A DNA stretch of 64,000 nucleotides from contig CAWKKU010000006.1 in assembly GCA_963850295.1 (NCBI GenBank), forward strand, positions 92,240 to 156,239. The letters run 5' to 3'. Origin of the DNA: Vicinamibacterales bacterium. Its GTDB lineage: Bacteria; Acidobacteriota; Vicinamibacteria; Vicinamibacterales; JAMQPK01. Both the position numbers and the translations under genes were made by a program. This document shows positions 711 through 63,280 of this stretch, one piece after another (positions within the stretch are counted from its first letter, which is position 1; each line of letters begins with the position of its first letter). The notes under the pieces are model-generated. The model was not told the origin of the DNA. It saw nothing but the letters and a program-made list of their open reading frames with translations, and did no database searches.

Positions 711-759
711 GCCACAGGACTACCAGCCACTGGCTACCGGCTATTGGCTAGCAGCCAGG
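711..759. repeat. intergenic oligomer-repeat element, GGCTAC/CCAGTAGCC family (copy 1 of 3)
   Basis: gccacaggactaccagccactggctaccggctattggctagcagccagg lies directly after the SDR stop (763-765). Its reverse complement resembles 40654-40734 (shared agccaatag and gtcctgtggc) and 57754-57799. Confidence 0.7.
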
Positions 760-762
760 TGA

Positions 763-1460
763 TCAGTTCTCCTTCCACGGGTTATTCGCAAACACCGCGA
801 CTTCCGGCCAGAGTGCCCGGCGCGGCATGTCCAGCGTAGCCATCACTGTTTCGGCGATATCCGCCGCGTAGAGTTTGTTGGGGTTGTTGCGGCCGACCTT
901 TCCGCCGAAGGTGGTTTGTACTTCCGACGGGCACACGCAGACGACGCGAATGCCGTGAGGCCGCAGTTCGGCCTGCCAGCATTGCGTGATCCCGCGCACG
1001 GCCCACTTGCTTGCCCCGTAAGGCGTCGCCGACGCCGCGCCCTTCATGCCGCTGGTCGATGCGATGTTGATGATGTCGCCCTCTCCCCGCGCTTTCATCT
1101 GCGGCACGACACGGTTGGTGATATCGACAAGGCCGAACACGTTCGTGTCGAACAGCGCTTTCATGCGATCGATATCGAGATCGCCGATCTCGGCGCGGTA
1201 GTCGTGCGCGGCGTTGTTGATCAGCACGTCCACGCCGCCCATCTGCTTCATGCACGCGTCGAAGGTTCTGGCGTTGTCGTCGGTGACGCGCGACATCCGC
1301 CTTGATGCCGTGCGCGCCGGTTTTCGCCGCGACGGCTTCGATGAACTGATTATTGCGGCCGGTGAAGACGACTTGATGGCCGGCGCTTGCGCGCCATCTC
1401 CACGATGGCTGCGCCGATCCCTTGACTGCCACCGGTGACGAGAAAACGGGCTGGTTTCAT
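763..1460 (-). CDS. short-chain dehydrogenase/reductase (SDR), split over three frames as sequenced
   Basis: ATG at 1460 gives MKPARFLVTGGSQGIGAAIVEMARK (Rossmann TGxxxGIG). A second frame gives AGHQVVFTGRNN...GIKADV. The 763-1296 frame carries NNAA and YGASKWA (YxxxK). Inferred frame changes near 1385 and 1297. Confidence 0.7.
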
Positions 1461-1537
1461 GATGGATTCCTCTCAGACGAGCGGCGATTCGCGGCGGTCA
1501 GTATATCTCCCCGAATGCGCTACAATTGTCACGGGTA

Positions 1538-1604
1538 AGTCCGAAGTCGAAAGTCCAAAGTCCAAAGTCGGAGTCGAAAGTCTGAGTCCTGAGTCCAGAG
1601 TCAG
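1538..1604. repeat. tandem heptamer array, AAGTCSA family (about 10 units)
   Basis: aagtccg aagtcga aagtcca aagtcca aagtcgg agtcgaa agtctg agtcctg agtccag agtcagg. Same family as 4524-4564. Confidence 0.85.
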
Positions 1605-1608
1605 GGTG

Positions 1609-1644
1609 CCTTCGTGCTTTCGTGTCTTCGTGGTTCGTGGTTCC
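1609..1644. repeat. tandem 7-8-mer array, CTTCGTG family
   Basis: ccttcgtg ctttcgtg tcttcgtg gttcgtg gttcc. Same family at 63242-63280 and, reverse-complemented, at 30688-30732. Confidence 0.85.
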
Positions 1645-1729
1645 GGAGTCGAGGGTAGGTGAATGCCAACGGGAGAATCGAGTCGTTCGTTGTCGCCGCG
1701 CGAGGCGAAGGACCACCTGCGTGGCGCAT

Positions 1730-1864
1730 ATGTGCCCGAAATGCGGGACGGATCACCATGTCACCGTCGAGCAGGTGCTGACTGGCGAGAAGATGGTGAC
1801 GTGGTGCCACTGCCGGGCGTGCGGTCACTCCTGGCATCCGGTTCCGGAAAGCCTCACCAACTGA
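1730..1864 (+). CDS. small zinc-ribbon protein (44 aa), hypothetical
   Basis: MCPKCGTDHHVTVEQVLTGEKMVTWCHCRACGHSWHPVPESLTN has two CxxC pairs. I prefer the internal ATG at 1730 of ORF 1622-1864, because the upstream part lies in the repeat arrays. Confidence 0.35.
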   Translation: MCPKCGTDHHVTVEQVLTGEKMVTWCHCRACGHSWHPVPESLTN

Positions 1865-1879
1865 CCTGACGCGCGTGCG

Positions 1880-2860: not shown

Positions 2861-2882
2861 AGTGTCCGGCTTTAGCCGGACC
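2861..2882. terminator. palindromic hairpin GTCCGGC-TTTA-GCCGGAC (bidirectional terminator candidate)
   Basis: Perfect 7-bp stem between the convergent SLATT-like (stop 2835-2837) and GNAT (stop 2889-2891) genes. The 22-mer agtgtccggctttagccggacc recurs identically at 60311-60332. Confidence 0.55.
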
Positions 2883-3478: not shown

Positions 3479-4519
3479 GTGCATTTGTTCTCGGCCGGCG
3501 CCGCAGCCGCGGCCGGCATGATGCTGTCGCGCTCCGCCCTGGCACAGGCGCAAGGCTTCAGCGTCGGACCCGAGCCCGTGCGCTATCCATCGACCGTCTG
3601 GAAAGTCCTCGACGAGCGCTTCCGGAAATACATGATCGGCAACACTCCGCTCGTGCGCGAATGGACCGGCGGGTTGTGGGCCGAAGGGCCGGCGTGGAAC
3701 GGCGTGGGACGTTTCGTGGTGTTCAGCGACATTCCGAACAACGTCCAGATGCGATGGGACGAGGCAACGGGAAAAACCACGGTGCTGCGGACGCCTTCGA
3801 ATTTTTCGAACGGCAACACCTTCGACTGGCAGGGCCGTCAGCTCTCGTGCGAACACGAGACCGCGAGGGTGGTCCGCTACGAATATCGAGGCGAACCGAC
3901 CGTGCTGGCATCGACATACGACGGCAAGCGCCTCAATGCGCCGAACGACGCCATCGTGCATCCGAACGGCGGCGGCATCCTGTTTACCGATCCTGGCTAC
4001 GGCAGCCATTGGCACTACGAAGGCACGGTCCGCGAGCTCGAACTGCCGACGAGCGTCTACCACATCGACGCGCAGAACGGCCGGCTCACCAGGCTCTCCG
4101 ACGAGATCCTCAAGCCCAACGGGTTGTGCTTTTCACCGGATTACCGTTTTCTGTATGTCGCGGACACCGCGCCGACGCACCACCCGCGTGAAAAAGCCAA
4201 GATCGTCAGGTGGGATGTCCAGAACAACGGCGCCCGCCTCACCAATCGGCGCGTGTTCGCGACGCTCGATGCCGGCTTCCACGATGGCATCCGCGCCGAC
4301 GTGGACGGCAACGTCTGGTGCGGTACCGGTTTCGGCGGCGAAGGGATCGATGGCGTTCACGTCTACGCGCCCGACGGGACGAAGATCGGCCAGGTGGTGA
4401 TGCCCGAGGGCACGGCGAACTTGTGCTTCGTCGGAAAACACCGCAACCGGCTGTTCATGACGAGCAGTCAGTCCATCTATACGCTCTACACGGCGGCGCA
4501 AGGCGCGCATATGACCTAA
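3479..4519 (+). CDS. SMP-30/gluconolactonase/LRE family protein, secreted
   Basis: 346 aa with AEGPAWN, FSDIPNN, NAPNDAIVHPNG and PNGLCFSPD beta-propeller motifs. A twin-arginine leader MNRRAFVLG starts at ATG 3469 in another frame, so the true start may be 3469 with a 1-nt indel near 3490. Confidence 0.8.
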   Translation: MHLFSAGAAAAAGMMLSRSALAQAQGFSVGPEPVRYPSTVWKVLDERFRKYMIGNTPLVREWTGGLWAEGPAWNGVGRFVVFSDIPNNVQMRWDEATGKTTVLRTPSNFSNGNTFDWQGRQLSCEHETARVVRYEYRGEPTVLASTYDGKRLNAPNDAIVHPNGGGILFTDPGYGSHWHYEGTVRELELPTSVYHIDAQNGRLTRLSDEILKPNGLCFSPDYRFLYVADTAPTHHPREKAKIVRWDVQNNGARLTNRRVFATLDAGFHDGIRADVDGNVWCGTGFGGEGIDGVHVYAPDGTKIGQVVMPEGTANLCFVGKHRNRLFMTSSQSIYTLYTAAQGAHMT

Positions 4520-4523
4520 ACGA

Positions 4524-4564
4524 AGAGTCGAAAGTCCAAAGTCGAAAGTCGTCGAAAGTCGAGG
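4524..4564. repeat. tandem heptamer array, AAGTCSA family
   Basis: agagtcgaaagtccaaagtcgaaagtcgtcgaaagtcgagg lies between the lactonase stop and the mscL RBS. Related to 1538-1604. Confidence 0.85.
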
Positions 4565-4569
4565 TGAAG

Positions 4570-4974
4570 ATGCTTCGCGGCTTCAAGGAATTCGTGCTCC
4601 GCGGCAACGTCCTGGACCTGGCGGTGGCCGTCGTCATCGGCGGGGCGTTCGGCGCCGTGGTGACGGCGCTGGTCAAGGACCTCCTCACCCCGCTCATCGG
4701 AGCGATCGTCGGCAAGCCCGATTTTTCCGCGTTCGTCGTCACGATCAACGGCTCGCAGTTCCTGATCGGGGACTTTCTGAATGCGGTCTTGTCCTTCCTG
4801 CTCATCTCGTTCGCGGTGTACCTGTTTGTCGTCGCCCCTGTGAATGCCTTGGTCGCCAGGCGCCGGCGCGGCGAACCACCGGCCGACCCGACGACGAAGA
4901 AGTGCCCGGAGTGCCTCAGCGAAGTGCCGATCGCGGCGCGGCGCTGCCCTTTCTGCACTTCGACGCTGACGTAA
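4570..4974 (+). CDS. mscL: large-conductance mechanosensitive channel MscL with C-terminal zinc-ribbon tail
   Basis: MLRGFKEFVLRGNVLDLAVAVVIGGAFGAVV is the canonical MscL N-terminus/TM1. RBS GAGGTG lies upstream. The tail is KKCPECLSEVPIAARRCPFCTS. Confidence 0.85.
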   Translation: MLRGFKEFVLRGNVLDLAVAVVIGGAFGAVVTALVKDLLTPLIGAIVGKPDFSAFVVTINGSQFLIGDFLNAVLSFLLISFAVYLFVVAPVNALVARRRRGEPPADPTTKKCPECLSEVPIAARRCPFCTSTLT

Positions 4975-5872: not shown

Positions 5873-6910
5873 ATGAGACTCGCAGCCGCCGCGGCCCTGG
5901 GCTTCGCCGCACTCGTCAGCGCACGTGTCTTTACCCAGGCTTCGGTGTCTCCAGGGCACGATTTACCTAATCCCTACCAGCCAGGGGTGAGAAACTGGGG
6001 AGTGCTCCCCGACAGTAGAACGTGGGGATCCACGGCCGGCGTGGAAATCGGCCCGCGCAACGAGATCTGGGCCATCGATCGCTGCGGCGTGAACACCTGC
6101 GACGGTTCAAGTCTGCCGTCGGTACACTTGATGGACCTGGCGACCGGACGTCCGACGAAAAGCATCGGCGAAGGGCTGTTCGTCTTTCCGCATGGCCTTC
6201 ACGTCGACGCCGACGGGAACATCTGGGTGACCGACGCCCAGGCGAGCAAAGACGGCACCAAGGGGCACCAGGTGATCAAACTGTCGCCCGAAGGCAAGGT
6301 GCTGTTGAGGCTCGGTACGGCCGGCGTGGCAGGCGGAGGTCCGGCGCATTTCAACGAGCCGTCGGACGTCGTGACCGCGCCGAACGGCGACATCTTCGTG
6401 GTGGACGGCCACTCCGGCCAGAATCCGAAAGTGCCGCCGGACTACGTTACGCGCGTCGTAAGATTTTCGAAGGACGGCAAATTCCTCCGCGAGTGGGGGA
6501 AACTCGGAACGGGCCCCGGGGAATTCCGGAACGCGCACGCTGTCGCGATCGATTCGCGCGGGCGCGTGTTGGTCGGTGACCGCGGCAACGCGCGTCTGCA
6601 GATTTTCGATCCGGACGGAAAGTTCATTGCCGAATGGAAGCAGTTCGGCCGTCCGAGCGGCTTGTATATCGACAAGGACGACAAGCTGTACGTCATCGAT
6701 GCGGACTCGACGTCGACAAGCAATCCGGGCTGGAAGAAGGGCATTCGCATCGGCAGCGCCCGCGACGGCAAGGTCGTGGCGTTCGTGCCCGGCCATCAGA
6801 CGGACAGCCCCGACGGCGCAGCGGGCGAAGGCGTCGTGTCGGATCCCGCGGGCAACCTGTACGCGGCGGAAAATACACTGCGCGGCGTCACCAAGTACGC
6901 CAAACATTGA
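5873..6910 (+). CDS. NHL-repeat beta-propeller protein, secreted
   Basis: Signal peptide MRLAAAAALGFAALVSA. Repeated FxxPxGVAxDxxGNIxVxD-type NHL units (FPHGLHVDADGNIWVTD, FNEPSDVVTAPNGDIFVVD, FRNAHAVAIDSRGRVLVGD). Paralog at 49072-50277. Confidence 0.75.
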   Translation: MRLAAAAALGFAALVSARVFTQASVSPGHDLPNPYQPGVRNWGVLPDSRTWGSTAGVEIGPRNEIWAIDRCGVNTCDGSSLPSVHLMDLATGRPTKSIGEGLFVFPHGLHVDADGNIWVTDAQASKDGTKGHQVIKLSPEGKVLLRLGTAGVAGGGPAHFNEPSDVVTAPNGDIFVVDGHSGQNPKVPPDYVTRVVRFSKDGKFLREWGKLGTGPGEFRNAHAVAIDSRGRVLVGDRGNARLQIFDPDGKFIAEWKQFGRPSGLYIDKDDKLYVIDADSTSTSNPGWKKGIRIGSARDGKVVAFVPGHQTDSPDGAAGEGVVSDPAGNLYAAENTLRGVTKYAKH

Positions 6911-7522: not shown

Positions 7523-9196
7523 ATGAGACAGTACACACCAAATACTGAAGTCGATTTCGTCGTCATTGGATCTGGCGCGGCCGGCGGCATCATGGCCAAG
7601 CAGCTTTCGCAGGCCGGGTTCTCCGTCGTCGTCCTCGAGCAGGGCGGCTGGGGCAAATACGGCCGGGACAGCGAATACACGAAGGACGAGTGGCTGAATC
7701 GAAACCTCGCGCTTGAAGATCGCCTGATGAGCGATCCCTCGCGTCAGCGCAATACCTTCCGCCGCAACGACAAGGAAAAGGCGGTTCCTGGGACTCACAG
7801 CTACGGAATGGTCGTCGGAGGCGGTACCGTTACCTATGGCGGCAGCAGCTGGCGGCATCTTCCCTACGAGTTCAACGAACTGACCAGCGATCCCACAATC
7901 CCGTCGGGGACCGGCATGGCGGACTGGCCGCTTACCTACGAAGAGCTGGAGCCGTACTACGTGCAGGCGGAATGGGAGATGGGGATTTCCGGCGCCCGCG
8001 TCAATTCGCCGTTCGTCGCGCCGATGTCGAAGGACTACCCGGTTCCACCGGTTCCGCTGAAGAGTTCGGGCGCCTTGTTCAACGTCGCAGCCAAGAAGCT
8101 GGGACTCACCGTCGTGCCCGGGCCGCTGGCCATCATCACCCGGCCGTATATGGGCCGCGCGGCATGCGTGAACTGCGGCATCTGCTCCGGGTACGGCTGC
8201 CACGTGCGTGCGCGGTCGAGCTCGGCGGTCACCGTGATTCCGATCGCGCAGAAGACGGGCCGCTGCGAGGTTCGCGCGAACAGCTATGTGCGCGAAATCT
8301 CGGTCAACGACGCCGGACGCGTGACCGGAGTCGTGTATTTCGACGGGCAGAAACGCGAAATTCAGCAGCGCGCGAAAGCGGTCGTGCTTTCGGCCAACGG
8401 GACCGAGTCGGCGCGTCTGCTTCTGCTCTCGAAGTCGGCGAAGTTCCCGGACGGACTGGCCAACAGCAACGGTGTGGTCGGCAAGTACCTGATGCTCGGC
8501 AACGGCGCCGGCGCAAGCGGCTTGTTCGAACGGCCACTCAACGAATACAAGGGCGTCATCTCCGGCGCCGGCATCGTGGACTATGTGCCGTCGGATCCGA
8601 AGCGCGGGTTCTACGGCGGCGGGCGCCTCACCGCGCGCGGATACGAAACGCCCCTGGGGCTCGGCCTCAACGGGCTGTCGCCCAGCGCGCCGCGCTGGGG
8701 CGCGGGCTACAAGAAAGCGCTGCGCGAAGAGGCGAATCACAAAATGACCATCACCTGCTTCACGACGCAGATGCCGCTCGAGACCAATCGCGTGGATCTC
8801 GATCCGGAATTGAAGGACGAATGGGGTCTGCCGGCCATGCGCATCACGTCGACCAGTCACCCCGACGACATGAAGTGCGCGAATTTCTTCCATCAGAAGT
8901 CGATCGAGATTCTGAAGGCCGCGGGCGCGACCCAGGTGTGGTCGAGTCCGCCCAATGACAGCCGCGGCGGCGCGCACAATCGCGGCAGCTGCCGTATGGG
9001 CAACGATCCGAAAACCTCGGTGGTCGACAAATATCACCGCGCCCACGATGTTCCGAACCTGTTCGTCATCGATGGGAGCAACCTCGTCACCGGCGGACGG
9101 AACCACCCGACGATGACGATTCAGGCGCTGGCCTATCGGGCCGCGGAGCATTTGATCAAGAACGCGAAGACCGGGATACTTCGCACCCGAGCCTAG
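7523..9196 (+). CDS. GMC family FAD-dependent oxidoreductase
   Basis: 557 aa. FAD fold DFVVIGSGAAGG. C-terminal GMC motifs GSCRMGNDP and NLFVIDGS. Confidence 0.85.
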   Translation: MRQYTPNTEVDFVVIGSGAAGGIMAKQLSQAGFSVVVLEQGGWGKYGRDSEYTKDEWLNRNLALEDRLMSDPSRQRNTFRRNDKEKAVPGTHSYGMVVGGGTVTYGGSSWRHLPYEFNELTSDPTIPSGTGMADWPLTYEELEPYYVQAEWEMGISGARVNSPFVAPMSKDYPVPPVPLKSSGALFNVAAKKLGLTVVPGPLAIITRPYMGRAACVNCGICSGYGCHVRARSSSAVTVIPIAQKTGRCEVRANSYVREISVNDAGRVTGVVYFDGQKREIQQRAKAVVLSANGTESARLLLLSKSAKFPDGLANSNGVVGKYLMLGNGAGASGLFERPLNEYKGVISGAGIVDYVPSDPKRGFYGGGRLTARGYETPLGLGLNGLSPSAPRWGAGYKKALREEANHKMTITCFTTQMPLETNRVDLDPELKDEWGLPAMRITSTSHPDDMKCANFFHQKSIEILKAAGATQVWSSPPNDSRGGAHNRGSCRMGNDPKTSVVDKYHRAHDVPNLFVIDGSNLVTGGRNHPTMTIQALAYRAAEHLIKNAKTGILRTRA

Positions 9197-9210
9197 GTCC
9201 AAACGCAAAA

Positions 9211-9274
9211 CAGGAGGTTAGGAGATTAGGAGAATTCTTTTTCAAAGACAAACTCCTAAACTCCTAAACTCCTG
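9211..9274 (+). terminator. long hairpin built from CTCCTAA-type repeats
   Basis: Left arm caggaggttaggagattaggag (9211-9232) pairs with right arm ctcctaaactcctaaactcctg (9253-9274) with two mismatches. Directly after the GMC stop (9194-9196). Confidence 0.5.
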
Positions 9275-9281
9275 CCAGCAT

Positions 9282-10482: not shown

Positions 10483-11259
10483 GTGCGAACCGTAGTCGTC
10501 GTCTACTTCGGCTATCTGATGGCGCTGGCGCTGATACTCAATGCGCCGGTCGGCCGGCGGCTGCGCGTCGTCAGCCTGTCCGGCATGATGGCCGCGGCCG
10601 CCATGATTGCCGGAATGCCGCACGTCATGCCGCTGGTGTATCTGCTGGTGGGCTACTGGCTGCCCGCGTCGCTGGTGACCGCTCCAAGCCCGCGCGTCGA
10701 GGGGTGGCTGCTGAGCTTCGACCGTCGGCTGTTCGGGCGAGTTCGGGATCGCGTCGTTCGTTCGCGGCGCGCCGCGGGCCGTCCTGGAATATCTCGAGCT
10801 GTCGTATCTGTTGTGTTACGCGGTGCCCCTCGCCGGCTACTTCTGGCTGCTGACGGGCGGCTTCGAGGCCGAGATGGGCCGATTCTGGACGACGGTTCTT
10901 CTCGCGTCCTTCCTTTGTTACGGAGTTGCTTCCGTGGATGCCGAGCCGCGCTCCCCGCGCAATCGAGCCAGCGGGAACCGCGTCACGTTCGGTGGTGAGG
11001 CGGGTGAATCTGGCGGTCCTCGGTCGCGCCAGCGTGCAATGGAACACCTTTCCCAGCGGGCACACGGCAGCGTCGCTGGCGACCGCCATGGCCGTCGGGG
11101 TCCACATGCCGATTGCCGGCGCCGTTCTCGGAGCTGGTTGCCGTGAGCATTGCGACCGGCAGCGTCGTCGGCCGCTATCACTACGCGGCCGATGCGGTCG
11201 CCGGTGCCGTGGTCGCTGTGTTCGCGTTCGTTATGGCCAGCGCCGCGCTCTGGCAGTGA
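10483..11259 (+). CDS. PAP2 family phosphatase, membrane, split over four frame segments
   Basis: GTG 10483. TM-rich. PSGHTAAS (10926 frame) and GRYHYAADAVAG (final frame, stop 11257-11259) are the PAP2 C2/C3 motifs. Three frame changes between about 10740 and 11140. Confidence 0.6.
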
Positions 11260-12089
11260 GGTCCGGCCGCTTGACGGAGATCTCGAGCGTCTTCGGCGGT
11301 ATCAGCTTTTGCGGCCGCGCATATACGACCGCGTACTGACTGTCGATTTCGGCGCCGAGCGACTGCAGCCTCTGCGCGAGGCTCATCGGTGTAAGCAGAT
11401 CTTCCCGGCGTCCGCCGGTCATCTGCGTGCCATTCGCGAACGTCATCTGCAGTTCCTGCTCTTCGCGATCTCTGACGCCGATTCCCGGCCGGTTCATCGG
11501 CAGCGCGTGAAACGTTACGCCGGTGTCGCGAAGCACGTCCACCACTCCTTGACTATGCCGCTCGCTGAACTCGGGGCCGCGTGCCGCATACACGATGAGG
11601 TGAGGGCGCGACAGCCTTCCGTTTCTGCAGCTTCCTGGCTTCGTCGACGATCGCGTCGAGGATGTACGTGCCGCTCCCGGTCTTGGCGAAAATCGTTCCG
11701 ATGCCCTTCTCGAGACGCGCCACATCGCGCGTGTAGTCGACGATCATCATCGGGCGCTCGCCGAACCCAACCAGAGAGATCTCGTGCTTGCCGGCCATCT
11801 GCTTGACGAAGTCGCGCAGGGCGGTGCGGATGTCGGTGATTTGTTCCTCGATCGCCTGACTTGTGTCGATGAGCAGCGCGATTTGGGCGGGCTGGGTAGC
11901 GGGCGATGCGCGCAGCACTTCGCGCGCGATGTCGTCTTCGCGCACGATGAAGTCGCTCGCGGTGAGGCCGGTTGCCGGCGCGTCCTTCTTGTCGAGGACG
12001 CTTACGTAGGCGGTTCTTTCGCTCGACTGCGCCCAGGCCGACTGCGCGGGGACGAGAAGAAGGAGCGAGACAATTGCCAATGCGCGCAT
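11231..12089 (-). CDS. VWFA domain protein (acidobacterial TIGR03436-like), one frameshift
   Basis: RBS GGAGG precedes ATG 12089. Signal peptide MRALAIVSLLLLVPAQSAWA. ALLIDTSQ (MIDAS-like). Frame change near 11620. Clear paralog of 13682-14552. Confidence 0.7.
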
Positions 12090-12112
12090 TGAGGCCTCCA
12101 ATAAGCCGCGGC

Positions 12113-12130
12113 GCAGGACTTCAGTCCTGC
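12113..12130. terminator. palindromic hairpin GCAGGAC-TTCA-GTCCTGC
   Basis: Overlaps the mug stop codon. The 16-mer CAGGACTTCAGTCCTG recurs at 34613-34628. Confidence 0.45.
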
Positions 12131-12651: not shown

Positions 12652-12652
12652 A

Positions 12653-13672: not shown

Positions 13673-13681
13673 GGCGATTCC

Positions 13682-14552: not shown

Positions 14553-14558
14553 AAGCCC

Positions 14559-51159: not shown

Positions 51160-51173
51160 TCAGCGAATTTCCT

Positions 51174-51207: not shown

Positions 51208-51212
51208 GATCG

Positions 51213-51968
51213 CTATTTACCTTCCCATCCGCCATCCACGTGTATGGACTGGCCGGTCAGGTAGCTCGCCTCGTCTGAGGCAAAAAATGCCGTCACCGTG
51301 CCGATTTCGCGAGGTTGGCCGGCGCGGCCGAGCGAGATCTGCTGCAGCACGAGCGGAAGGATGTCGGGGCTTTTCATGACCCATGCGGTCATGTCGGTGT
51401 CGATCAGCCCGGGATGCACGCAGTTGACGCGGATGCCCTGCGGCGTCATCTCCGCCGACATGTTGCGCGTCAGCGCCTCGAGCCCGAGCTTCGTCGGGGC
51501 GTAGTGGGTGCGCCCCGGCAGCACTTTGGCCGCCTGAATCGAGCCGATGTTCACGATGCTGCCCTTGCGCTTCTCGGCAAGCGCTCTGCGGCAGAACACC
51601 TGAGAGCACAACCACGCGCCGCGCAGGTTGACGTCGACCAGACGCGTCCACTGCTCGTCGGTGAGCTCCAGGAAGGGGACAATGGTCTCGATTCCCGCGT
51701 TGTTGACGAGGATGTCGAGGCCGCCGAGTTCTTTCCACGCCTTGTCGATCATCGATTCGACGTCAGCGCGCTTGGCCACGTCGCCCTTGACGGCGATCGC
51801 CTTCACGCCTTTGGCCTTGGCGGCCTTTGCCACCTCTTCCGCCTGCGCTGCGCTTTCGACGTAGTTCACCGCGACGTCGGCACCTTCTTCGGCGAACACT
51901 TCAGCGATGCCGCGGCCGATGCCGCGGCTCGCACCGGTGATGAGGGCTTTCTTGCCTTTGAGTCTCAT
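51213..51968 (-). CDS. SDR family oxidoreductase (glucose 1-dehydrogenase / 3-oxoacyl-ACP reductase-like)
   Basis: ATG 51968. TGASRGIGRG, NNAG and YAPTKLG (YxxxK). Intact. Confidence 0.85.
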   Translation of the reverse strand: MRLKGKKALITGASRGIGRGIAEVFAEEGADVAVNYVESAAQAEEVAKAAKAKGVKAIAVKGDVAKRADVESMIDKAWKELGGLDILVNNAGIETIVPFLELTDEQWTRLVDVNLRGAWLCSQVFCRRALAEKRKGSIVNIGSIQAAKVLPGRTHYAPTKLGLEALTRNMSAEMTPQGIRVNCVHPGLIDTDMTAWVMKSPDILPLVLQQISLGRAGQPREIGTVTAFFASDEASYLTGQSIHVDGGWEGK

Positions 51969-53080: not shown

Positions 53081-56000
53081 ATGCAGCCTGTGACTCGTCC
53101 TTCCACCCTCCTCTTTATATACCTGTGCGCCGTCGTTCTGGCTGCACCAGCCGCCGCTCAGGTGCGGTATGGCTCGATTGTCGTGGAAGTGACCGATCAG
53201 AGTGGCGGTGCGGTGCCCGGCGCCGACGTCACGATCACGCAGACCGCCACCGGCCTCACCCGCAATGGTGTGTCGAACGAGACGGGTCTGGCGACGCTGC
53301 CGACGCTGCCTCCGGGTTCGTATTCGGTGAGGGTCAGCTTGTCTGGCTTCAAGGAGTTCGTCACTTCCGGTGTCGAGGTCAGTGAAGACAGCGTGGTTCG
53401 AGTGGGCAGCGTTCTGGAGGTTGGGCAGCTATCCGATACCGTAACCGTCACCGCGGGTGTCGCCGTTCTTCAAACCGACCGCGCCGACGTCCGTGCCGAA
53501 ATCCCTGCCACGCAGCTCGAAAACCTGCCGGTGCCGGTCGGCCGGAACTATCAGAACCTCTTCGTCACGGTGCCGGGCATTTCGCCGCCCGAAAACATGC
53601 ACTCGGTGGCGGTGAACCCCGCACGCGGCCTCGCGTTCAGCTCGAATGGAACGACGCGCAACGCGAACGCGATTCGTATCGAAGGCGCGATCTCGAACAA
53701 CCTGTGGCTGCCGCACGTGGCCGCCTATGTGCCGGCGCTCGAAGCCATCGAATCGGTCGGTGTGACGACGAGCACGTTCGACGCGGATCAGGGACTCTCG
53801 GGCGGCATGTCGGCGAACGTGCTGATCAAGAGCGGCACCAACGAGCTGCATGGGTCGGCGTTCGAGTACTTCTACAACGAGTCGATGAAGTCGCGGCCCT
53901 ACTTCCTGCCGGCAAATCAGAACAAGCCGGAGGCGCGGCAGAACCAGTTCGGCGGCACGCTCGGCGGCCCGCTGGTCCGGAACAGACTGTTCTTCTTCGG
54001 CAGCTACCAGGGCACGTTCGACCAACAGCTCGCATCGCGGTTCGGCACCGTGCCGACGGCGGCGATGCGCAACGGCGATTTCTCCGCCTCGCCGACGCCG
54101 ATTTACGACCCGGCGACCGGCAACACGTCCACCGGCGCGGGACGCACGGCATTTCCGGGCAACGTCATTCCGCGCGACAGGTTCGAGCCGATCGCGCTGA
54201 AGTTGATCGAAGATTTGCCGCTGCCGAATCAGCCGGGCCTCACCGACAACTACTTCGTGACGGGCGATTACACGTTCGATCGCCACAATGTCGACGCGAA
54301 GATCAACTACAACCCGACGAATCGGCTCGGGCTGACCGCGCGCCTCGGCTGGCTCGGCTACAACTTCAAGAACCCGGCAATGTTCGGTACGCTTGGCGGA
54401 CTGCCGGTCAACAACACGGCGGCGAAGGCGGGCACCGGCCTCGGTGACACGTACACGTTCACGGGCAGCGGCTCGTACGTGCTTTCGCCGAATTTCCTGA
54501 TCGATACCTACGCGGGGATCACGACGATCGAAGTGCTCTCCGAGCCGGATCGCCTCGACGAGAACCTCGGTCTCGATTACCTCGGCATTCCCGGAACCAA
54601 CGGTCCGGACCGCCTGTACGGCGGGTGGCCCCACTTCGAGATCACCAACTACTCGAACATCGGCTATGCCGGCAGCGGCAATTCGCCCTACATCGACGAC
54701 AACTGGCAGGTGCAGTACACCGGCAACGCGACCTACACGAGAGGGGCGCACACGTTCCGTTTCGGCGGCGACATCGTCCGTCAGGCGATGAACCGGCACG
54801 AGCTCGGAAACGGCTCGGGGCAGTTCGCGTTCGCGGGCGGCCCGACGGCGCTCTCCGGCGGTCCATCGGTGAACCAGTTCAACACCTTCGCCTCGTTCCT
54901 GCTCGGTCTGCCGACGGGCGTGTCGAAGAGCATCATCCCGTTCGAAGAGGGATACACGCGGAGCCGAAACTGGCAGTTCAGCTTCTTCGCGAAGGATCAG
55001 TGGCAGCCCACGCCGAACCTCACCGCGTCGCTCGGCCTTCGCTACGACTATTTCCCCGTAGGCGTGCGAACGACGCGCGGCATGGAGCGCTACGACCTCG
55101 ACACCAATACCATGCTCATTTGCGGCCTCGGGTCGGTGCCGGCCGACTGCGGCTACGACATGGGTCCCGGCAACGTGTCGCCGCGTCATCGGCCTCGCCT
55201 ATCGAGTGGGCGACAACATCGTCCTTCGCGGCGGCTACGGCATCAACTACGACCCGTATCCACTCGCATTCGTCCGCAACCTGCTCGGCAACTATCCGTC
55301 TTCGATTTCGTTGAGCCTGCCGCAGGCCAGCTCGTTCGCGCGCTGCCGGACGGCTCCGCGACGGTATTCCCGCCGTGCCGGTGCCCGACGTGAGCAGCGG
55401 CGTGATTCCAGTGCCGCTGAACGTCAGCGCACGCGCGCTGCCGGACCAGCCGAAGCGCGGATACATCCACTCGTGGAACGTGACCGTGCAGTCGGAGCTG
55501 CCCGGAGGGTTCACGGGACAGGCCGGATACGTTGCGACGCGGCAGCGCGACATCAACCAGATCATGGACGCCAATGCCGGACAGGTGATCGGCGCGGGCA
55601 ACTCCGGACGGCCGCTGTTCCAGCGGTTCGGCCGGACGGGCGCGACCGGCATTCTCAGCAACCCGGGATGGAGCGACTACGATTCGCTGCAGACGTCGGT
55701 GATGCGGCGGATGGCGCAGGGCTTTCAAATGAATGTCGCGTATACGTGGTCGAAGGCGTTTGGTATCTGCTGCGACACCCTCAGCGACGGGGCGCCTCGC
55801 GTGCAGGCGCTGGAGTATTTCGAGCTGAACGAGGCGCTGCTGCCGCAGGACCGCCCGCACAACTTCCAGGCGTCGTTTGTCGCGGAGCTTCCGTTCGGAA
55901 CGAACAAGCCATTCCTGAACAGCGGCGGTGCCGCATCGGCGATCTTCGGCGGCTGGCAGGTGAACGGCCTCTTCAGCGCGTATTCAGGGTCTCCGTTCAC

Positions 56001-56437
56001 GATCGAGTCGGCGGCGACGTCGCTCGACATGAACGGCAGCAATCAGATGGCCGATCAGGTGAAGGACACGGTCGAGATCCTCGGCGGAATCGGACCAGGC
56101 AATCCGTGGTTCGACACGACGGCGTTCCGTCCCGTCACCGAACGGCGCTTCGGCACCGCCGGCTTCAACAGCATGCGCGGGCCGGGTTTCGCCAACTTCG
56201 ACATGAGCGTGTTCCGGCAGTTTGCGCTGGGCAGCTGCCCGGACGCTCCAGTTTCGCCTCGAAATCTTCAACCTGACCAACACGGCGCATTTCGCCAACC
56301 CGTCGGCGAACGCGTCGAACGCCGCCAACTTCGGGATTATCACGAGCACGGCGAACAGCGGGCGCGAGGGGATTGACGAGCGGCTGTTCAGAATAGGGTT
56401 CAGGTTTGGGTTACTGAGAAGAATTTCTTCTCTGTGA
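53081..56437 (+). CDS. TonB-dependent receptor-like outer-membrane protein with N-terminal CarboxypepD_reg domain, at least four frameshifts
   Basis: Signal peptide. [22 protein letters not shown]...[14 protein letters not shown] (Carboxypeptidase regulatory-like), then a plug/barrel region. Frame changes near 55188, 55340-55358 and 56235. A 1-nt correction near 56408 would give the barrel-typical ending FRFGY with stop at 56415-56417. Confidence 0.8.
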
Positions 56438-56455
56438 CCTCTGTGCTCTCTGTGG
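56427..56455. repeat. CTCTGTG-family heptamer array
   Basis: cttctctgtgacctctgtgctctctgtgg. Same family as 32971-33039 and 30825-30850. Confidence 0.8.
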
Positions 56456-56458
56456 TTA

Positions 56459-57752
56459 TTGCCGTCTGTTTTTGACTATGATCTTCCGTTGATGACGGTT
56501 GGACAGGGCGTAGACGAGGGCTACCTGACGCCGGAGCAGATCGCTGCCGTTGCGCGCGAAGGGCTGGCGCCGCTTGCGGTGGACGGCCGCAGAGTGCTGG
56601 TGCTCATTCCCGACGGCACGCGCACGATGCCGATGCCGCTGATGTTCGAGCTGCTCGAGCGGGAGCTGGGCGGGCGGGTCGCGGCGCTCGACTATCTTGT
56701 TGCGCTGGGAACTCACACGCCGATGAACGATGCGCAGCTCAGCGCGCTCGTCGGCCGGCCCGTCGTCAACGGCCGCGCGGGGTCCAGCAACATCTTCAAC
56801 CATCGGTGGGACGATCCCGCCACGTTCGCGCACCTCGGGACCATCCCCGCGCGCGACATCGCCGACATCACGAGCGGGCGCTTGCGTCAGGACGTACCCG
56901 TGGCGCTGAACCGGCGTGCCACCGAATACGATCATGTGCTCATCTGCGGACCGGTCTTTCCTCACGAAGTCGCCGGGTTTTCGGGAGGCACGAAGTATCT
57001 GTTTCCGGGCATAGCCGCGCCGGAAATCATCCACTTCACGCACTGGCTCGGCGCGCTCGTCACGTCTACGGCCTTGCTCGGCACGATCGACACAGCCGTG
57101 CGCGGCGTCATCGATCGCGCGGCCGCGCTGCTCGACACGCCGCTGTCTCTGCTGGCCGTTGTCGTCACGCACGACGGCATCGCCGGTATGTACTGCGGCG
57201 ACGTGCACGCGGCATGGCGGCAGGCGGCAATGCTTTCGGCGCGCCGGCACATCGTCTGGGTGGACGAGCCCTACGACCGCGTGCTCGCGATCATGCCGGC
57301 GATGTACGACGACTTGTGGACGGCCGCGAAGGGCGTATACAAGAGCGAAACGGTGGTGTCGGACGGCGGCGAGGTGATCGTTTACGCGCCGCACGTCGAC
57401 GAGGTCAGCCGCGTGCACGGCAAGGTGATCGACGAGGTCGGCTATCACTGCCGCGATTACTTTCTCGGGCAGTGGGACCGCTTCCGGAGATATCCCCGGC
57501 GGCATTCTTGCCCACTCGACGCACGTCAAAGGGCTCGGGACCTACGACGCGCCGACCGACGTCGAGGAGCCGCGCATCGATGTGACGCTTGCCACGGGAA
57601 TCCCGCGCGAGCGGTGCGATCTCGTCAATCTGGGTTACATGAATCCGGCGCACTTGAACGCGCGCGACTACGAAGGCGATCCCAAAACGCTGGTGATTCC
57701 GCGCGCGGGAGAAATGTTGTACCGAATTGGAAAACCGCCGGCGGCCAGCTAA
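56459..57752 (+). CDS. lactate racemase (LarA) domain-containing protein, one frameshift
   Basis: TTG 56459, or ATG 56492. VLIPDGTRTMP, GTHTPM, HEVAGFSGGTKY and GGILAHSTHV. Frame change near 57487. Reconstructed stop at 57750-57752. Confidence 0.7.
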
Positions 57753-57753
57753 T

Positions 57754-57799
57754 GGCCAGGAGCTGACCGGCTATTCCGGCTGTACTGGCTACTGGCTGG
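57754..57799. repeat. oligomer-repeat element, GGCTAC/CCAGTAGCC family (copy 3 of 3)
   Basis: ggccaggagctgaccggctattccggctgtactggctactggctgg runs into the gnd RBS. Confidence 0.7.
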
Positions 57800-57805
57800 A
57801 GAACG

Positions 57806-60301: not shown

Positions 60302-60310
60302 GTAGTACGT

Positions 60311-60358
60311 AGTGTCCGGCTTTAGCCGGACCTGAACCGTCCGGCTTCGGCCGGACCG
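60311..60358 (+). terminator. double hairpin (GTCCGGC-TTTA-GCCGGAC, then GTCCGGC-TTCG-GCCGGAC)
   Basis: Begins 10 nt after the kinase stop. The first hairpin is an exact 22-mer copy of 2861-2882. Confidence 0.6.
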
Positions 60359-60367
60359 GAGGCTCCA

Positions 60368-61708
60368 ATGTCCGATCAGAATTTCGTGAACCGGCGCGAT
60401 TTCGTGAAGACCGCGGGCGGCGCCATGGCTGCCACGTCGCTGCTCGGCGCCGACGCGTTTGCGCAGGCACCGTCCGCCCGCAAGCGCTACGCGATCATCG
60501 GCACTGGAGAACGCGCCACCAGCATGTGGGGGCGCCAGATCCGGGAACGGTATTCGGACGTCGATTCAGTTCGTCGGGCTGGCCGACATCAACCCGAAGC
60601 GTGTCGAAGCGTCGAAGGCGCTGATGGGCGTCGATTGCCCGACCTTCACCAACTTCGACGAGATGCTCGACAAGACCAAGCCCGACATCGTCATGGTGAC
60701 GACGAAAGGACTCTTTCCACAGTCAGTACATCGTCCGGGCGCTCGATCGCGGCTTCGACGTCATGACCGAGAAGCCGATGGTCATCGACGAGAAGCAGTG
60801 CCAGGCCGTGCTCGACGCCGAGAAGCGCAACAAGAAGAAGATCATCGTCACCTTCAACTACCGGTTCGCGCCGAAGCACAGGGCCGTGAAGGAAATCCTG
60901 ATGTCGGGCGAGATCGGCAAAGTGCTTTCAGTTGACTTTGCGTGGTACCTGGACGTCTACCATGGCGCGGACTATTTCCGCCGGTGGCACGCGTACAAGA
61001 ACGGCGGCGGGAGCCTCTGGGTGCACAAGGCGACGCACCATTTCGATCTCGTCAACTGGTGGCTGGGCGCGGATCCTGTCGAAGTGACGGCCAACGGCCA
61101 GCTTCAGGTGTACGGCAAGAACGGCCCGTTCCGTGCCGCGAACTGCCGCGTCTGCCCGCACAAGAAAGACTGCCGGTTCTACTACGACCTGAACACCAAT
61201 CCCACGCGCATGCAGGCTGTACGCCGGCGCGGAAGACGTGGACAATTACTATCGCGACGCGTGTGTGTACCGGAACGACATCGACATCTACGACTCCATG
61301 CAGGCGATCGTGAAATATTCGAACGGCGCGACGATGGCCTATTCGCTGGACGCGCATATGCCGTACGAGGGCTTCAGCGTGGCGTTCAACGGCGAGCTCG
61401 GCCGTCTCGATGTGCGCGACTACGAGCGGCAGCCGTGGGAACAGCCGGAAGCGGACGAGACCGAAGTGTATGTGACGAAGAGCTTCGGCCTGCGCAGGCG
61501 CGTGACCTTCGCCAAGGGCGAAGGCGGACACGGTGGCGGCGACGATTTCCTCCGCGATCAGATTTTCCGTCAGGTTCCCGCGCCCGAACACATGAAGGTA
61601 CCCGACTCGCGAGCCGGCGCCATGTCGTGCCTCACCGGCATCGCCGCGCGCAAGAGCATCGAAGAGAAGCGCGCCGTCAAGATCTCGGAGCTGGTCAAGA
61701 TCACGTAG
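60368..61708 (+). CDS. Gfo/Idh/MocA family oxidoreductase with Tat signal, three frameshifts
   Basis: MSDQNFVNRRDFVKTAGGAMAATSLLGADAFA. YAIIGTGERA Rossmann motif, then DVMTEKPMV. Frame changes near 60562, 60707 and 61213 join ORFs 60368-, 60459-, 60763- and 61238-61708. Confidence 0.75.
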
Positions 61709-61851
61709 ACATTGCCAGATTTGCGATTGACGATCGGCAATTGACGCGCGGCCACGCGCTCAGTTTGGCGCCTGTGCGAAGCGGCCGTCTTATGCGATGC
61801 GGTGAAAATCGCATTCAACTCGGACGCTTCGGCGCGATGGGCTGCTACCTC

Positions 61852-62126
61852 TTAGAGGAACGATTGCGCGGCGACCAGCAGGTCCAGCCAGAACTCCGAT
61901 TCGTCGGCCTCTTCAACGACGATCCCGATCTTTGCGATAAACTCGGCGTGCGAGCGCGCCTTACACGCGGCGCGGTAGTTAGCTGCGACTGAGGTGCCTG
62001 CATCAAAGAGTTGTCCTCCAATCCGCCGCCCCTCGAAGTGGATGGCAGCTCTCTCACGAGCAGATGATGCGACCGCAAATTCGAAGTGCGTTTCTTGAGT
62101 TCTTCCGCTTGAATGCTCATGCTCAA
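61852..62126 (-). pseudogene. four-helix-bundle protein (23S rRNA IVS protein family, TIGR02436-like), frameshift plus in-frame stop
   Basis: MSMSIQAEELKKRTSN (62126 frame) shifts near 62070 to FAVASS...GQLFDAGTSVAANYRAACKARSHAEFIAKIGIVVEEADESEFWLDLL. TAA at 61852-61854 is followed in the same frame by family-like ..EASELNAIFTASHKTA. Confidence 0.55.
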
Positions 62127-62219
62127 AACGAGCAGATGTTGTGCCAGGCACGCGAAGCGTCAAGCGCTCCTTCCGGCACGATTACGCAATTGAGTTCATT
62201 CGCTCGACGATTGGCAAAA

Positions 62220-63226
62220 ATGCGGCAAAGTCAATTGAAAATATGGCGTTTCCAACAAGAACTCGGTAAGTCCACTCTCGATCTCACTCCTATCGGCCTC
62301 GGCGCGTGGGCTATCGGCGGCGACTGGCGGTTCGGCTGGGGGCATCAGGACGATGCCGATTCGATCGCGACGATACGGCATGCGGTCGACATCGGTCTGA
62401 ACTGGATCGATACGGCCGCCGTGTACGGCCTCGGGCATTCCGAGGAAATGGTCGGGCGAGCGTTGGCGACGTGCCGCGCGAGTCGCGGCCGTATGTGTTC
62501 ACGAAGTCCAGTCTCGTCTGGGATGACGCAGCGAAATGTCTTCCACAGCCTGCGCGCACTCATCGATTCGCCAGGAAGTCGAGCAGAGCCTGCGGAGGCT
62601 GCAGACGGAGCGCATCGATCTGTACCAGATTCACTGGCCGGCGTGGCCGGCGAGTCCGGAAGGGCACGACCCGGGGACCATCGAAGAAGCGTGGAGCACG
62701 ATGTTGCGTTGAGAGACGAAGGGAAGGTCGCCTTCGTCGGCGTGTCGAATTTCGACGTCGCGCAACTGCAGCGTATTTCGCGCATCGAGACGCCGACCAG
62801 CCTGCAGCCGCCGTATTCGATGCTGCGACCCGAGATCGAGGCGGATCTCCTGCCCTATTGCGCCGGAGCACAACATCGGCGTGATTCCGTATTCACCGAT
62901 GCAGTCGGGGCTGCTCACCGGAACGATGACGCGTGAGCGGGTCGCGTCGCTGCCCGCGAACGACTTCCGGCGGGGAAGCCGGTTCTTTCAGGAGCCGATG
63001 TTCTCGAAGGCGCAGGCGATCGTCGAGCGGCTCCGTGCCGTTGGCGAGAAACACGGCCGCACTCCGGGCGAGGTGGCGATTGCGTGGACGCTGAGGCACC
63101 CTGCGATCACGGCGACGATCGTCGGTGCGCGAAAGCCCGCGCAGATCGATCAACTGATCGGCGCCGCCACGTTTCGGTTGAGTCCGGACGAGGTGAGAGC
63201 TCGACGCAGCGCTCGCGGCCGCCTGA
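62220..63226 (+). pseudogene. aldo/keto reductase, at least six frame changes and one premature stop
   Basis: Family motifs are scattered over three frames: LGLGAWAIGG, DTAAVYGLGHSEEMVGRAL, IDLYQIHWP, GKVAFVGVSNF, LQPPYSML and IPYSPMQSGLLTG. Switches lie near 62463, 62530, 62565, 62705, 62866 and 63195. Confidence 0.75.
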
Positions 63227-63241
63227 GCGCGGATCCTTTGC

Positions 63242-63280
63242 GTTCGTGCTTTCGTGTCTTCGTGGTGATGTCTTCGTGGT
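63242..63280. repeat. CTTCGTG-family array
   Basis: gttcgtgctttcgtgtcttcgtggtgatgtcttcgtggt abuts the uxaC stop. Confidence 0.8.

Follow-up and report, generated by a model that had tools for sequence, protein, structure and literature searches.

Intergenic repeats made of short units have been on record for 35 years, from cyanobacteria, Xanthomonas, Beggiatoaceae, and Geobacter. The Geobacter metallireducens account (Aklujkar et al. 2009, PMC2700814) describes multicopy sites of several classes: class 1 has four GTTGCTYN units; class 2 has three tandem TCTCCGTS[Y] units, mostly in opposite-strand pairs at variable distance; and class 3 has five MTYCTGA units, also paired. The same account reports 49 further elements, each of four GGACCGG heptamers, and a speculation that classes 1 to 3 bind IHF or HU. 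In cyanobacteria, short tandemly repeated repetitive (STRR) heptamers form hairpins between the cotranscribed hupS and hupL genes (PMC2670836), and stabilization of the transcript has been suggested (PMC2670836; PMC4692102). Heptanucleotides are the commonest long simple sequence repeats (SSRs) in many bacteria, and slippage has been proposed (Mrazek et al. 2007, as cited in PMC4679880 and PMC4692102); TAACTGA repeats are known from Beggiatoaceae (PMC4679880) and GGGAATC repeats from Xanthomonas (PMC4692102). Our literature search found no description of such repeats in Acidobacteria, and nothing relevant on the unit sequences reported below or on Bacteroides intergenic repeats. Here we describe arrays of short tandem units in the intergenic DNA of a 64,000-nucleotide (nt) stretch of a Vicinamibacterales contig (CAWKKU010000006.1, positions 92,240 to 156,239), hereafter called the window, in whose own numbering positions are given. 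The arrays belong to noncoding, dispersed families that vary among lineages and are anchored at gene ends; some pair as hairpins, and some are conserved across phyla.

An original prediction, made from the letters of the window, was that at least 16 intergenic sites carry such arrays, and Tandem Repeats Finder reported arrays at all 19 ranges that it had named. Against 40 dinucleotide-preserving shuffles of the window, period 7 arrays numbered 10 versus 1.0 expected (shuffle maximum, 3), period 8 and period 9 arrays 7 each versus 0.7 expected, and period 14 arrays 3 versus 0 expected. Arrays of periods 7, 8, and 9 are thus about 10 times more common than in shuffled sequence. The self-similarity of the noncoding pieces of the window was raised at lags 7, 8, 14, and 21, and the named ranges total about 937 bp, or about 15% of the 6.3 kb of delimited noncoding DNA. 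Across 14 Acidobacteriota sequences (283 kb), there were 60 period 7/8 arrays in 44 kb of nongenic DNA and 11 in 239 kb of genic DNA, a density about 30 times higher outside than inside called genes; gene calls on these loci and on the metagenome contigs below were crude, being based on open reading frame (ORF) length and G+C content at third codon positions (GC3). Strong arrays numbered 49 per 283 kb in Acidobacteriota versus 15 per 1.26 Mb in 67 loci of other taxa, where the exceptions were cyanobacteria and metagenome-assembled genomes (MAGs) of Saprospiraceae, Syntrophaceae, and Chloroflexia. The arrays are therefore neither at the frequency expected from composition nor confined to the window. 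We rejected an assembly artifact, as finished isolate replicons have the same kind of array, and so do assemblies made independently from short reads and from long reads.

The sixteen sites in 64 kb can be assigned to only eight families, and the grouping first proposed held up: runs of 11-mers were common only to fellow members within the window, and multi-unit patterns were common to them too. TTCGTGCTTTCGTGTCTTCGTGGT is present at 1609 and 63242 (family 2), TCTTCTCTGTG-NN-CTCTGTG-NN-CTCTGTGGT at 33009 and 56425 (family 3), and ACAGGAGGTNAGGAGATTANGAG at 9209 and 43985 (family 5); overall, family members have patterns of 18 to 24 nt plus ends in common. Units consist of a conserved core and variable bases (AGTC plus 3, GGCT plus 3, GTTC plus 3, CTYYGTG plus 1 or 2, and CTCCT plus 3). 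The units had been described as 7 to 8 nt long, which needs amending for families 2, 3, and 5: these have periods of 8 to 9 nt and a fixed number of units, three to five (three in family 5, CTCCTAAA or AGGAGNTT, at an 8-nt period). Families 1, 4, 6b, 7, and 8 resemble expandable heptamer arrays. The family 3 array at 30641 to 30678 is present as described, with its unit corrected to CTCCGTG on the minus strand. In family 5, the left arms (9211 to 9233 and 43985 to 44007) are also Shine-Dalgarno-like AGGAG arrays, and the right arms are anti-Shine-Dalgarno-like CTCCT arrays.

Long hairpins had been proposed at 9211 to 9274, 32971 to 33039, and 48495 to 48575, and their RNA folds indeed went far beyond those of shuffled sequences; two more hairpin sites were found, at 57745 to 57805 and 43980 to 44065. 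The z scores against shuffles were −7.1 (9205 to 9280), −5.3 (57745 to 57805), −3.95 (43980 to 44065), −3.2 (32965 to 33045), and −3.1 (48490 to 48580). These five inverted array pairs are predicted to fold as interrupted hairpins of 20 to 30 bp, the stems being 5- to 7-bp helices with small internal loops every 7 to 9 nt. Arrays in direct orientation only were unstructured, with z scores from −0.94 to +0.96 (4515 to 4570, 49010 to 49072, 50380 to 50440, 51165 to 51215, 56420 to 56460, and 63235 to 63285). No U-tract was found 3' of the stems at the window hairpins, and a terminator scan was not enriched over shuffles (13 found versus 13.8 expected, and 6 versus 9.7); the terminator pattern was matched only by the core of 48495 to 48575. 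The suggestion that the arrays are terminators thus lost its footing.

The arrays had also been said to sit immediately after stop codons. This is so for 14 of the 16 clusters, which start no more than 16 nt past the stop codon of a flanking gene; the arrays at 1537 to 1644 lie in a divergent spacer and the arm at 56422 to 56461 just upstream of a start codon. Part of this proximity to a stop codon is trivial where spacers are short, since the array then takes up all of the spacer. Several window sites do extend to the next ribosome-binding site (RBS), as proposed. Arrays at 43985 to 44060, 48495 to 48575, 50391 to 50432, and 57754 to 57799 overlap ORF ends, and the ORFs at 44001 to 45239 and 50388 to 50879 read into elements and terminate inside them. 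The term "punctuation system" used in the original prediction therefore suits the placement just past stop codons but not a role in termination.

Family 3, which we write as CTCYGTG, recurs well beyond the window. A metagenome scan with the pattern (CTCTGTGNN)2CTCTGTG found it on at least 120 contigs of about 35 to 71% G+C. Among the matches listed, 145 of 164 arms had exactly three units, at a 9-nt period, a count to be read with the selecting pattern in mind, as arms of fewer than three units were not sampled. The five bases before these arms were 45 to 58% T, the bases after them were G (81%), T or C, N, A, A, and 73 of the 164 had an inverted partner across a loop of 7 to 120 nt that often held another hairpin. 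The architecture is thus a T-run, three 9-nt units, and GGYNAA. Between paired arms the heptamer was invariant, and the 2-nt spacers were complementary in 36 of 80 cases versus 28.5 ± 4 expected.

Placement of the CTCYGTG element relative to genes is polar, with the CACAGAG orientation after stop codons and the CTCTGTG orientation before start codons. In the former, 33 arms start within 30 nt past the upstream stop, many of them within 1 to 2 nt, and the stop codon can lie inside the conserved flank (TGAACC-, TAACC-, or TAGCC-ACAGAG; window 32957 to 33040 is an example). By the crude gene calls, the element occupied 24 of 53 convergent spacers (45%), 36 of 157 codirectional spacers (23%), and 4 of 39 divergent spacers (10%) (convergent versus divergent, Fisher P = 4.5e-4), so occupancy rises in rough proportion to how many gene 3' ends a spacer contains.

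The same element lies in 35 and 22 places on the megaplasmids of Gemmatirosa kalamazoonensis, where the subfamilies CTCTGTG, CTCTGCG, and CTCCGCG keep three units per arm and have the same base changed in all six units. It is also present in an Anaerolineales MAG (L019) and in Bacteroides ovatus (NZ_CP081918.1, 96281 to 96348; 3001 to 3068 of L202), where a CACAGAG/CTCTGTG hairpin fills the spacer between gmd and fcl (GDP-L-fucose synthase). Counting Geobacter from the literature, the family occurs in at least five phyla, the others being Acidobacteriota, Gemmatimonadota, Bacteroidota, and Chloroflexota. It was absent from 5,426 E. coli genomes and 50,697 phage records. Family 2 (CTTCGTG) adjoins family 3 in the window and in L102, L117, and L163. 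A search of Rfam with ten metagenome loci gave only subthreshold generic long-hairpin (miRNA precursor) matches (E value of ≤1).

Some additional forms of the element deserve mention. The gmd-fcl spacer of B. ovatus, a cultured gut Bacteroides, is a convenient experimental site. In nested composites (L201, 19960 to 20130; L102, 3982 to 4240), CGCAGAG or CACGAAG arms enclose a complete CACAGAG/CTCTGTG hairpin, which suggests either insertion into hairpin centers or outward growth of the palindrome. Metagenome locus L187 has three copies of about 230 bp (1 to 227, 2719 to 2921, and 6637 to 6843) that resemble MITEs (small transposable elements whose ends are inverted repeats), with terminal inverted repeats GGCATCCTTCAT / ATGAAGGATGCC and a central CACAGAG triple; it also has a 15-unit GACCTTG/GACTTCA heptamer array at 4339 to 4467.

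Related loci (L001 to L013, all Acidobacteriota) show how rapidly the arrays turn over. The spacer upstream of gnd, the gene for 6-phosphogluconate dehydrogenase, holds an array in the window, L001, L002, L004, L006, L007, L010 (a remnant), and L011, with seven different unit types over these eight genomes; in L005, L008, and L009 it is empty and the two genes abut. Orthologous sites that are empty lack any seed sequence for the growth of an array. The gene upstream of gnd loses its last codons to the array in L001 and L002, where the array also provides the stop codon. The arrays of L006, L010, and L011 have a common right boundary, GTTCGAAGTTCC, and differ in duplicated GTTCNNN blocks and in whether they have an inverted left arm; these differences look like the signature of slippage on an inherited array. 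At 57754 to 57799, one of the soil contigs, which are fragmented, has an array 7 nt shorter than that of the window.

In the spacer after the PfkB kinase gene, the window and L002 have hairpins resembling GTAG-type repetitive extragenic palindromes (REPs), L001 and L009 have arrays of heptamers, L004 has one of octamers, and L007 has a long heptamer element that is palindromic. Because REPs or arrays occupy the same orthologous spacer, the arrays share the niche of classical REPs. The GTAG-REP-like family lies downstream of genes (window 2864 to 2881, 60314 to 60331, and 60339 to 60356; L002, about 12545 to 12640), and its unit is an 18-nt hairpin, GTCCGGCTT(T/C)(A/G)GCCGGAC, with GTAGT before it.

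The L007 element is present in three copies of 170 to 250 bp within 21 kb, with unrelated flanks. These copies have defined ends and a nonperiodic irregularity in common (CCAACCACTCCC and its complement), and one has extra internal units. Together with the multi-unit patterns of the window, they require either copying between loci or a common constraint. Because family copies have multi-unit irregularities in common, they appear to be dispersed repeats rather than independent products of slippage. In no locus did a pair of arms flank a transposase-sized ORF. The original prediction proposed that related genomes be searched for the same unit families; 11-mers of the window families formed no arrays in L001 to L013, and at 11-mer resolution the families are lineage specific. 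Soil contigs pile up at 49028 to 49131, 50380 to 50483, and 51108 to 51211 with many different flanks, and families 6, 7, and 8 therefore recur elsewhere. BLAST searches of plasmids with families 1 and 2 and with family 4 gave nothing useful.

On balance, we lean toward the interpretation that these are dispersed noncoding families that spread between spacers, are remodeled by slippage, are tolerated in 3' flanks, and exert REP-like effects on RNA where they form hairpins. Elements of 3 to about 11 tandem 7- to 9-nt units, each with a conserved core of 4 to 7 nt and 2 to 3 variable bases, would colonize spacers as REPs do. Copy-and-paste spread between spacers could be the work of a trans-acting recombinase or transposase, of ectopic gene conversion, or of template switching. 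The arrays would then grow, shrink, and homogenize locally through replication slippage, would persist where they do least harm, namely, in the 3' flanks of genes, and would be cotranscribed with the upstream gene. By analogy with REPs, bacterial interspersed mosaic elements (BIMEs), and cyanobacterial STRRs, the hairpin forms probably either hold back 3' exonucleases or provide RNase III-type sites, uncoupling neighboring cistrons, and arrays without a pairing partner probably do little or nothing.

Several observations speak against this interpretation. No target-site duplication or consistent outer direct repeat was found in L007 or in 48 metagenome pairs, and neither the window nor any locus yielded a transposase, a REP-associated tyrosine transposase (RAYT), or an autonomous partner. 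Period 7/8 arrays in the Acidobacteriota loci had no clear orientation bias (27 of 87 codirectional, 5 of 23 convergent, and 4 of 22 divergent spacers). Finally, in the CTCYGTG family the heptamer, the three-unit count, and the flanks are conserved while the 2-nt spacers vary and barely covary; this pattern is more in keeping with selection and a sequence-specific reader than with neutral persistence.

The main alternative is that the arrays, above all the CTCYGTG triple and its relatives, are recognition modules for a putative sequence-specific DNA- or RNA-binding factor and are kept by selection as a punctuation system, which may act in termination, RNA processing, or nucleoid organization. 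Consistent with this, the heptamer, three-unit count, 9-nt period, leading T-run, and trailing GGYNAA hold over contigs of such different G+C content; the same arm is found in Gemmatimonadota, Bacteroidota, Chloroflexota, and, by the literature, Geobacter; the inter-unit spacers vary without clear covariation; placement is polar relative to stop and start codons; occupancy climbs with the number of gene 3' ends per spacer; the Gemmatirosa subfamilies alter one base in all six units together (CACAGAG to CGCAGAG); and arm length, about 27 to 35 bp, is similar over the families and the Geobacter classes. However, the units differ so widely by family and genome that one reader cannot explain them all, orthologous spacers are empty or contain REPs instead, the absence from E. 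coli genomes and phage records means that any reader would be lineage specific, and no candidate reader gene was found near the elements. We consider this alternative unlikely. A further proposal, that the CTCYGTG triple and its sister families are a conserved cis element for a putative reader (a sequence-specific protein or RNA) common to Acidobacteriota, Gemmatimonadota, Bacteroidota, Chloroflexota, and Geobacter, and mark gene ends directly past the stop codon rather than being selfish or neutral DNA, we put forward only tentatively and with similar doubt.

A less probable alternative is that the arrays are purely local SSRs, produced by in-place slippage that favors 7-nt units, as in the hypothesis of Mrazek et al. 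(2007), without transfer and without function. Heptamers being the commonest class of long SSR in many bacteria (PMC4679880, PMC4692102) fits this idea; the near-perfect arrays at 49017 to 49068 and 51174 to 51207 resemble recent expansions, identical variant-unit blocks are present in L011 and L006, and one soil contig differs by 7 nt at 57754 to 57799. Local slippage does not account for sixteen sites in 64 kb belonging to only eight families, for copies with identical multi-unit irregularities and ends, for the dominance of three-unit arms among the matches listed, for the same arm and flanks in several phyla, or for empty orthologous sites without seed sequence. As sole explanation it thus seems largely refuted, because patterns are common to different loci. 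The least probable alternative, which we judge very unlikely, treats the paired arrays as intrinsic terminators or attenuators of an unusual kind, with incidental sequence conservation: five sites have stable hairpins, the CTCYGTG family is enriched in convergent spacers and directly past stops, and the core of 48495 to 48575 fits the terminator pattern on both strands, but the stems lack U-tracts, scan counts were not above those of shuffles, many sites are inside apparent operons (LarA-like/gnd in the window, gmd/fcl in Bacteroides), more than half of the arms are unpaired, the direct arrays are unstructured, and terminators show the opposite of a conserved sequence that does not covary, so that a classical terminator role is not supported.

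The window elements are as follows, with the strand given where one was assigned. Family 1 (AAGTCSA) has a heptamer array of about nine units at 1537 to 1604, in the divergent spacer between the start of a short-chain dehydrogenase/reductase (SDR) gene (1461, minus strand) and a zinc-ribbon ORF (1730 to 1864, plus strand), and an AAGTCGA array at 4521 to 4563 (plus strand) that is the whole spacer between a gluconolactonase-like gene (3479 to 4519) and mscL (4564 to 4974) and is unstructured (RNA z = 0.34). Family 2 has a CTTCGTG array of four units with an 8-nt period and the end GTGGTTCC at 1606 to 1644, adjoining the family 1 array; an inverted CACGAAG array of five units at 30685 to 30733; and a CTTCGTG array at 63239 to 63280 that abuts the stop of uxaC (63280 to 63999, minus strand). 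The 44-amino-acid (aa) ORF at 1730 to 1864, which lies across the divergent spacer from the family 1 and 2 arrays, is zinc-ribbon-like in having two CxxC pairs (MCPKCG...CHCRACGH).

Family 3 begins with a three-unit CTCCGTG-type arm (minus strand) at 30641 to 30678, in the convergent spacer 30625 to 30885 and 16 nt past the stop of 30256 to 30624. It faces a three-unit CTCCGTG/CTCTGTG arm at 30825 to 30850, which is opposed to the opposite-strand arrays at 30641 to 30733. The hairpin at 32957 to 33040 (plus strand; nhmmer E = 1.4e-7 with a profile of the metagenome arms) follows a TetR gene (32366 to 32959) and reads TGA stop, ACC-ACAGAG.., loop, TCTTCTCTGTG-CT-CTCTGTG-AG-CTCTGTGGT. At 56422 to 56461 (plus strand; nhmmer E = 1e-8), 30 nt before the LarA-like gene (56492), there is a single arm, TTTCTT-CTCTGTG-AC-CTCTGTG-CT-CTCTGTG-GTTATTG. 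Just upstream of the TetR gene, at 32295 to 32359, are overlapping palindromes, ATGTTGTCGCTGTCAACATA and TATGTTGACATTGTCAACAT, that bear two divergent sigma-70-like promoters (TTGACA, 17 nt, TACCAT or TATGTT) and are probably the operator of the TetR protein.

Family 4 has a GGCTAC-type heptamer array at 709 to 759 (minus strand), 3 nt past the stop of an SDR gene (763 to 1461, minus strand; Pfam adh_short); a TAGCCNG array of about 11 units at 40654 to 40734 (plus strand), 7 nt past the stop of another SDR gene (39867 to 40646) and reaching the RBS and ATG at 40735 to 40747; and a GGCTAC-type hairpin (−30.8 kcal/mol) at 57745 to 57805 (plus strand), covering the stop of the ORF at 56492 to 57766 and ending at the RBS of gnd (57806). 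The family 5 hairpin at 9211 to 9274 (plus strand) is (AGGAGNTT)x3, loop, (AAACTCCT)x3, with a predicted fold of −33.5 kcal/mol; it starts 14 nt past the stop of a GMC oxidoreductase gene (7523 to 9196) and ends 7 nt before a GluQRS-like gene (9282). A half-element like its right arm, CTCTTAATCTCTTAACCTCCTGCCAG, lies at 30874 to 30896 and overlaps the stop of 30886 to 31191 (minus strand). The second family 5 hairpin (ACAGGAGGTCAGGAGATTAAGAG ... CTCCTATTCTCCCGTTCTCCTGT) is at 43985 to 44060 (minus strand); the ORF for an XDH-family FAD/2Fe-2S subunit (44001 to 45239) enters it and has its stop codon within.

Family 6 comprises a GAACGAA/TTCGTTC-type hairpin at 48495 to 48575 (minus strand), whose core (48526 to 48542) is bidirectional and terminator-like with T-runs on both strands, and an unstructured (GTTCTTC)x6 array at 50387 to 50432 (minus strand), at the end of a frameshifted cyclase ORF (50388 to 50879) and under a spike in soil-contig depth. 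Family 7 is (GGACGAT)x7 at 49017 to 49068 (minus strand), with 95% matches, 3 nt past the stop of an NHL-repeat gene (49072 to 50277), likewise unstructured and with a depth spike. Family 8 is a perfect (AATCCCC)x5 at 51174 to 51207 (minus strand; transcript, (GGGGAUU)n), 5 nt past the stop of an SDR gene (51213 to 51968) and with many soil-contig flanks. There is also a weak, degenerate CGCAGAG/CGCGGAG-type arm of 2 to 3 units, CACCGCAGAGGCGCGGTGACGCGGAGAAC, at 506 to 534 (plus strand), 26 nt past the stop of the ORF at 13 to 480; matching subfamily units are present in Gemmatirosa (L201).

The window has a G+C content of 63%. Its 6-phosphogluconate dehydrogenase shares 83% aa identity with the enzyme of a Vicinamibacterales MAG, the 13 best loci come without exception from Acidobacteriota, and the metagenomes with window-related sequence are from soil and rhizosphere only; the host is an uncultured, Vicinamibacterales-like soil acidobacterium. 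The surrounding genes are ordinary: SDRs, mscL, a GMC oxidoreductase, a GluQRS-like gene, the TetR regulator, XDH-family subunits, a TonB-dependent receptor, the LarA-like gene with gnd and the PfkB kinase after it, uxaC, and a tad/flp pilus cluster. The scanned window proteins (64 kb of genome) included no transposase, no tRNA gene was found in the window, and the window had no match to Rfam 15 at the gathering score. Resemblances of the units to DnaA boxes, CRP sites, attC, the tRNA T-arm, and Rho rut sites were considered and dropped as weak or inconsistent in orientation.

The tad/flp cluster (11200 to 27240, all on the minus strand) encodes a Flp pilin, the CpaC secretin, a CpaE-like response-regulator ATPase, and other proteins. 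In contrast to the rest of the window, none of its approximately nine codirectional spacers has an array. A 102-nt (34-codon) tandem repeat at 28317 to 28628 (3.1 copies, 73% identity) lies within a 966-aa PEGA-domain ORF (27363 to 30263); it is a coding repeat with no relation to the intergenic arrays. At least nine window genes are broken by single-base frameshifts, including those for an SDR, the CpaC secretin, a metallo-beta-lactamase, an XDH-family subunit, a PPDK-like protein, a cyclase, a TonB-dependent receptor, a GFO/IDH oxidoreductase, and an aldo/keto reductase (regions 763 to 1461, 22965 to 24921, 40696 to 41757, 42834 to 43859, 45103 to 46791, 50388 to 51159, 53081 to 56376, 60368 to 61992, and 62064 to 63285). 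Because short-read soil contigs consistently differ from the window by 1 nt (at 50558, 50937/50938, 57498, and 59224), we read the frameshifts as indel errors of long-read assembly; this evidence suggests that the genes are not pseudogenes.

Acidobacteriota, a phylum abundant in soil, are a new host group for elements whose kind is already known from heptanucleotide repeats, cyanobacterial STRRs, and Geobacter multicopy sites. The CTCYGTG family has a fixed architecture, conservation across at least five phyla, anchoring at stop codons, and an occupancy that tracks gene 3' ends. The cross-phylum, stop-anchored CTCYGTG triple arm is the most interesting lead, and the question can now be tested in culturable and partly genetically tractable bacteria, namely, B. 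ovatus, G. metallireducens, and Gemmatirosa. In practical terms, the arrays break short-read assemblies, lead gene callers astray because ORFs extend into them, and invite confusion with regulatory RNAs.

The statement that the arrays are not classical REP, CRISPR, or MITE structures was literally right, although they have a REP-like niche and belong to a kind already in the literature. CRISPR arrays have repeats of 23 to 47 nt with unique spacers of similar length, whereas the units here are 7 to 9 nt and their spacers 0 to 3 nt. The hairpin forms resemble MITEs in their inverted ends, variable centers, length of 60 to 250 bp, and nested copies (L102 and L201), but no target-site duplication or related transposase was found, and many copies are single arms. 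There is also a likeness to REPs, BIMEs, and REPINs: the arrays are extragenic, lie after stops in codirectional and convergent spacers, may be single or paired in inverted orientation, have many copies in a genome, turn over rapidly among relatives, and take the same spacer that GTAG-REP hairpins take in related genomes. However, their arms are direct arrays, not imperfect palindromes, and have no conserved GTAG head.

With long SSRs, the arrays share an excess of heptamers, intergenic location, sporadic phylogenetic distribution, and frequent placement beside start or stop codons; head-to-tail units of 5 to 11 nt exceed chance here and are concentrated outside coding DNA. TAACTGA-like units (TCAGTTA and GAACTGA) occur in L013, L006, and L011. 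The reports of long SSRs concern single-unit repeats, whereas here many families coexist, their members have patterns longer than a single unit in common, and in several families the ends are defined and the number of units is fixed.

Like STRRs, the arrays are intergenic tandem heptamers with several families per genome, some of them inverted arrays that form hairpins. The classical STRR units CCCCAGT, TTGGTCA, and CAACAGT were not seen in the window. We know of no description of fixed three-unit arms for STRRs. STRR hosts are filamentous cyanobacteria rather than Acidobacteriota, and the unit sequences differ; the only unit in common is that of the window (GGGGATT)5 array at 51174 to 51207, which is the unit of the Nostoc GGGGA(T/C)T repeats (PMC4692102).

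The Geobacter sites offer the closest match. Class 2 is like window family 3 (30641 to 30678, 30825 to 30850, 32957 to 33040, and 56422 to 56461) and the metagenome arms in architecture, with a near-identical unit: three units are found at each site, CTCCGTG at 30641 to 30678 and 30825 to 30850 and CTCTGTG at 32957 to 33040 and 56422 to 56461, at an 8- to 9-nt period, and opposite-strand pairing occurs within 32957 to 33040 and between 30641 to 30733 and 30825 to 30850. The comparison was made with the published consensus; the host phylum is different, and family 3 is mostly CTCTGTG, not CTCCGTG. Stop-codon anchoring and multi-phylum distribution are not reported for the Geobacter sites in the portions of that account used here (PMC2700814). 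Class 3 bears some resemblance to family 5 (CTCCTAA) and to the L002 arrays of CTCCTGAT, though family 5 has three 8-nt units versus the five 7-nt units of class 3. Finally, several classes coexist in the Geobacter genome, as the families do in the window.

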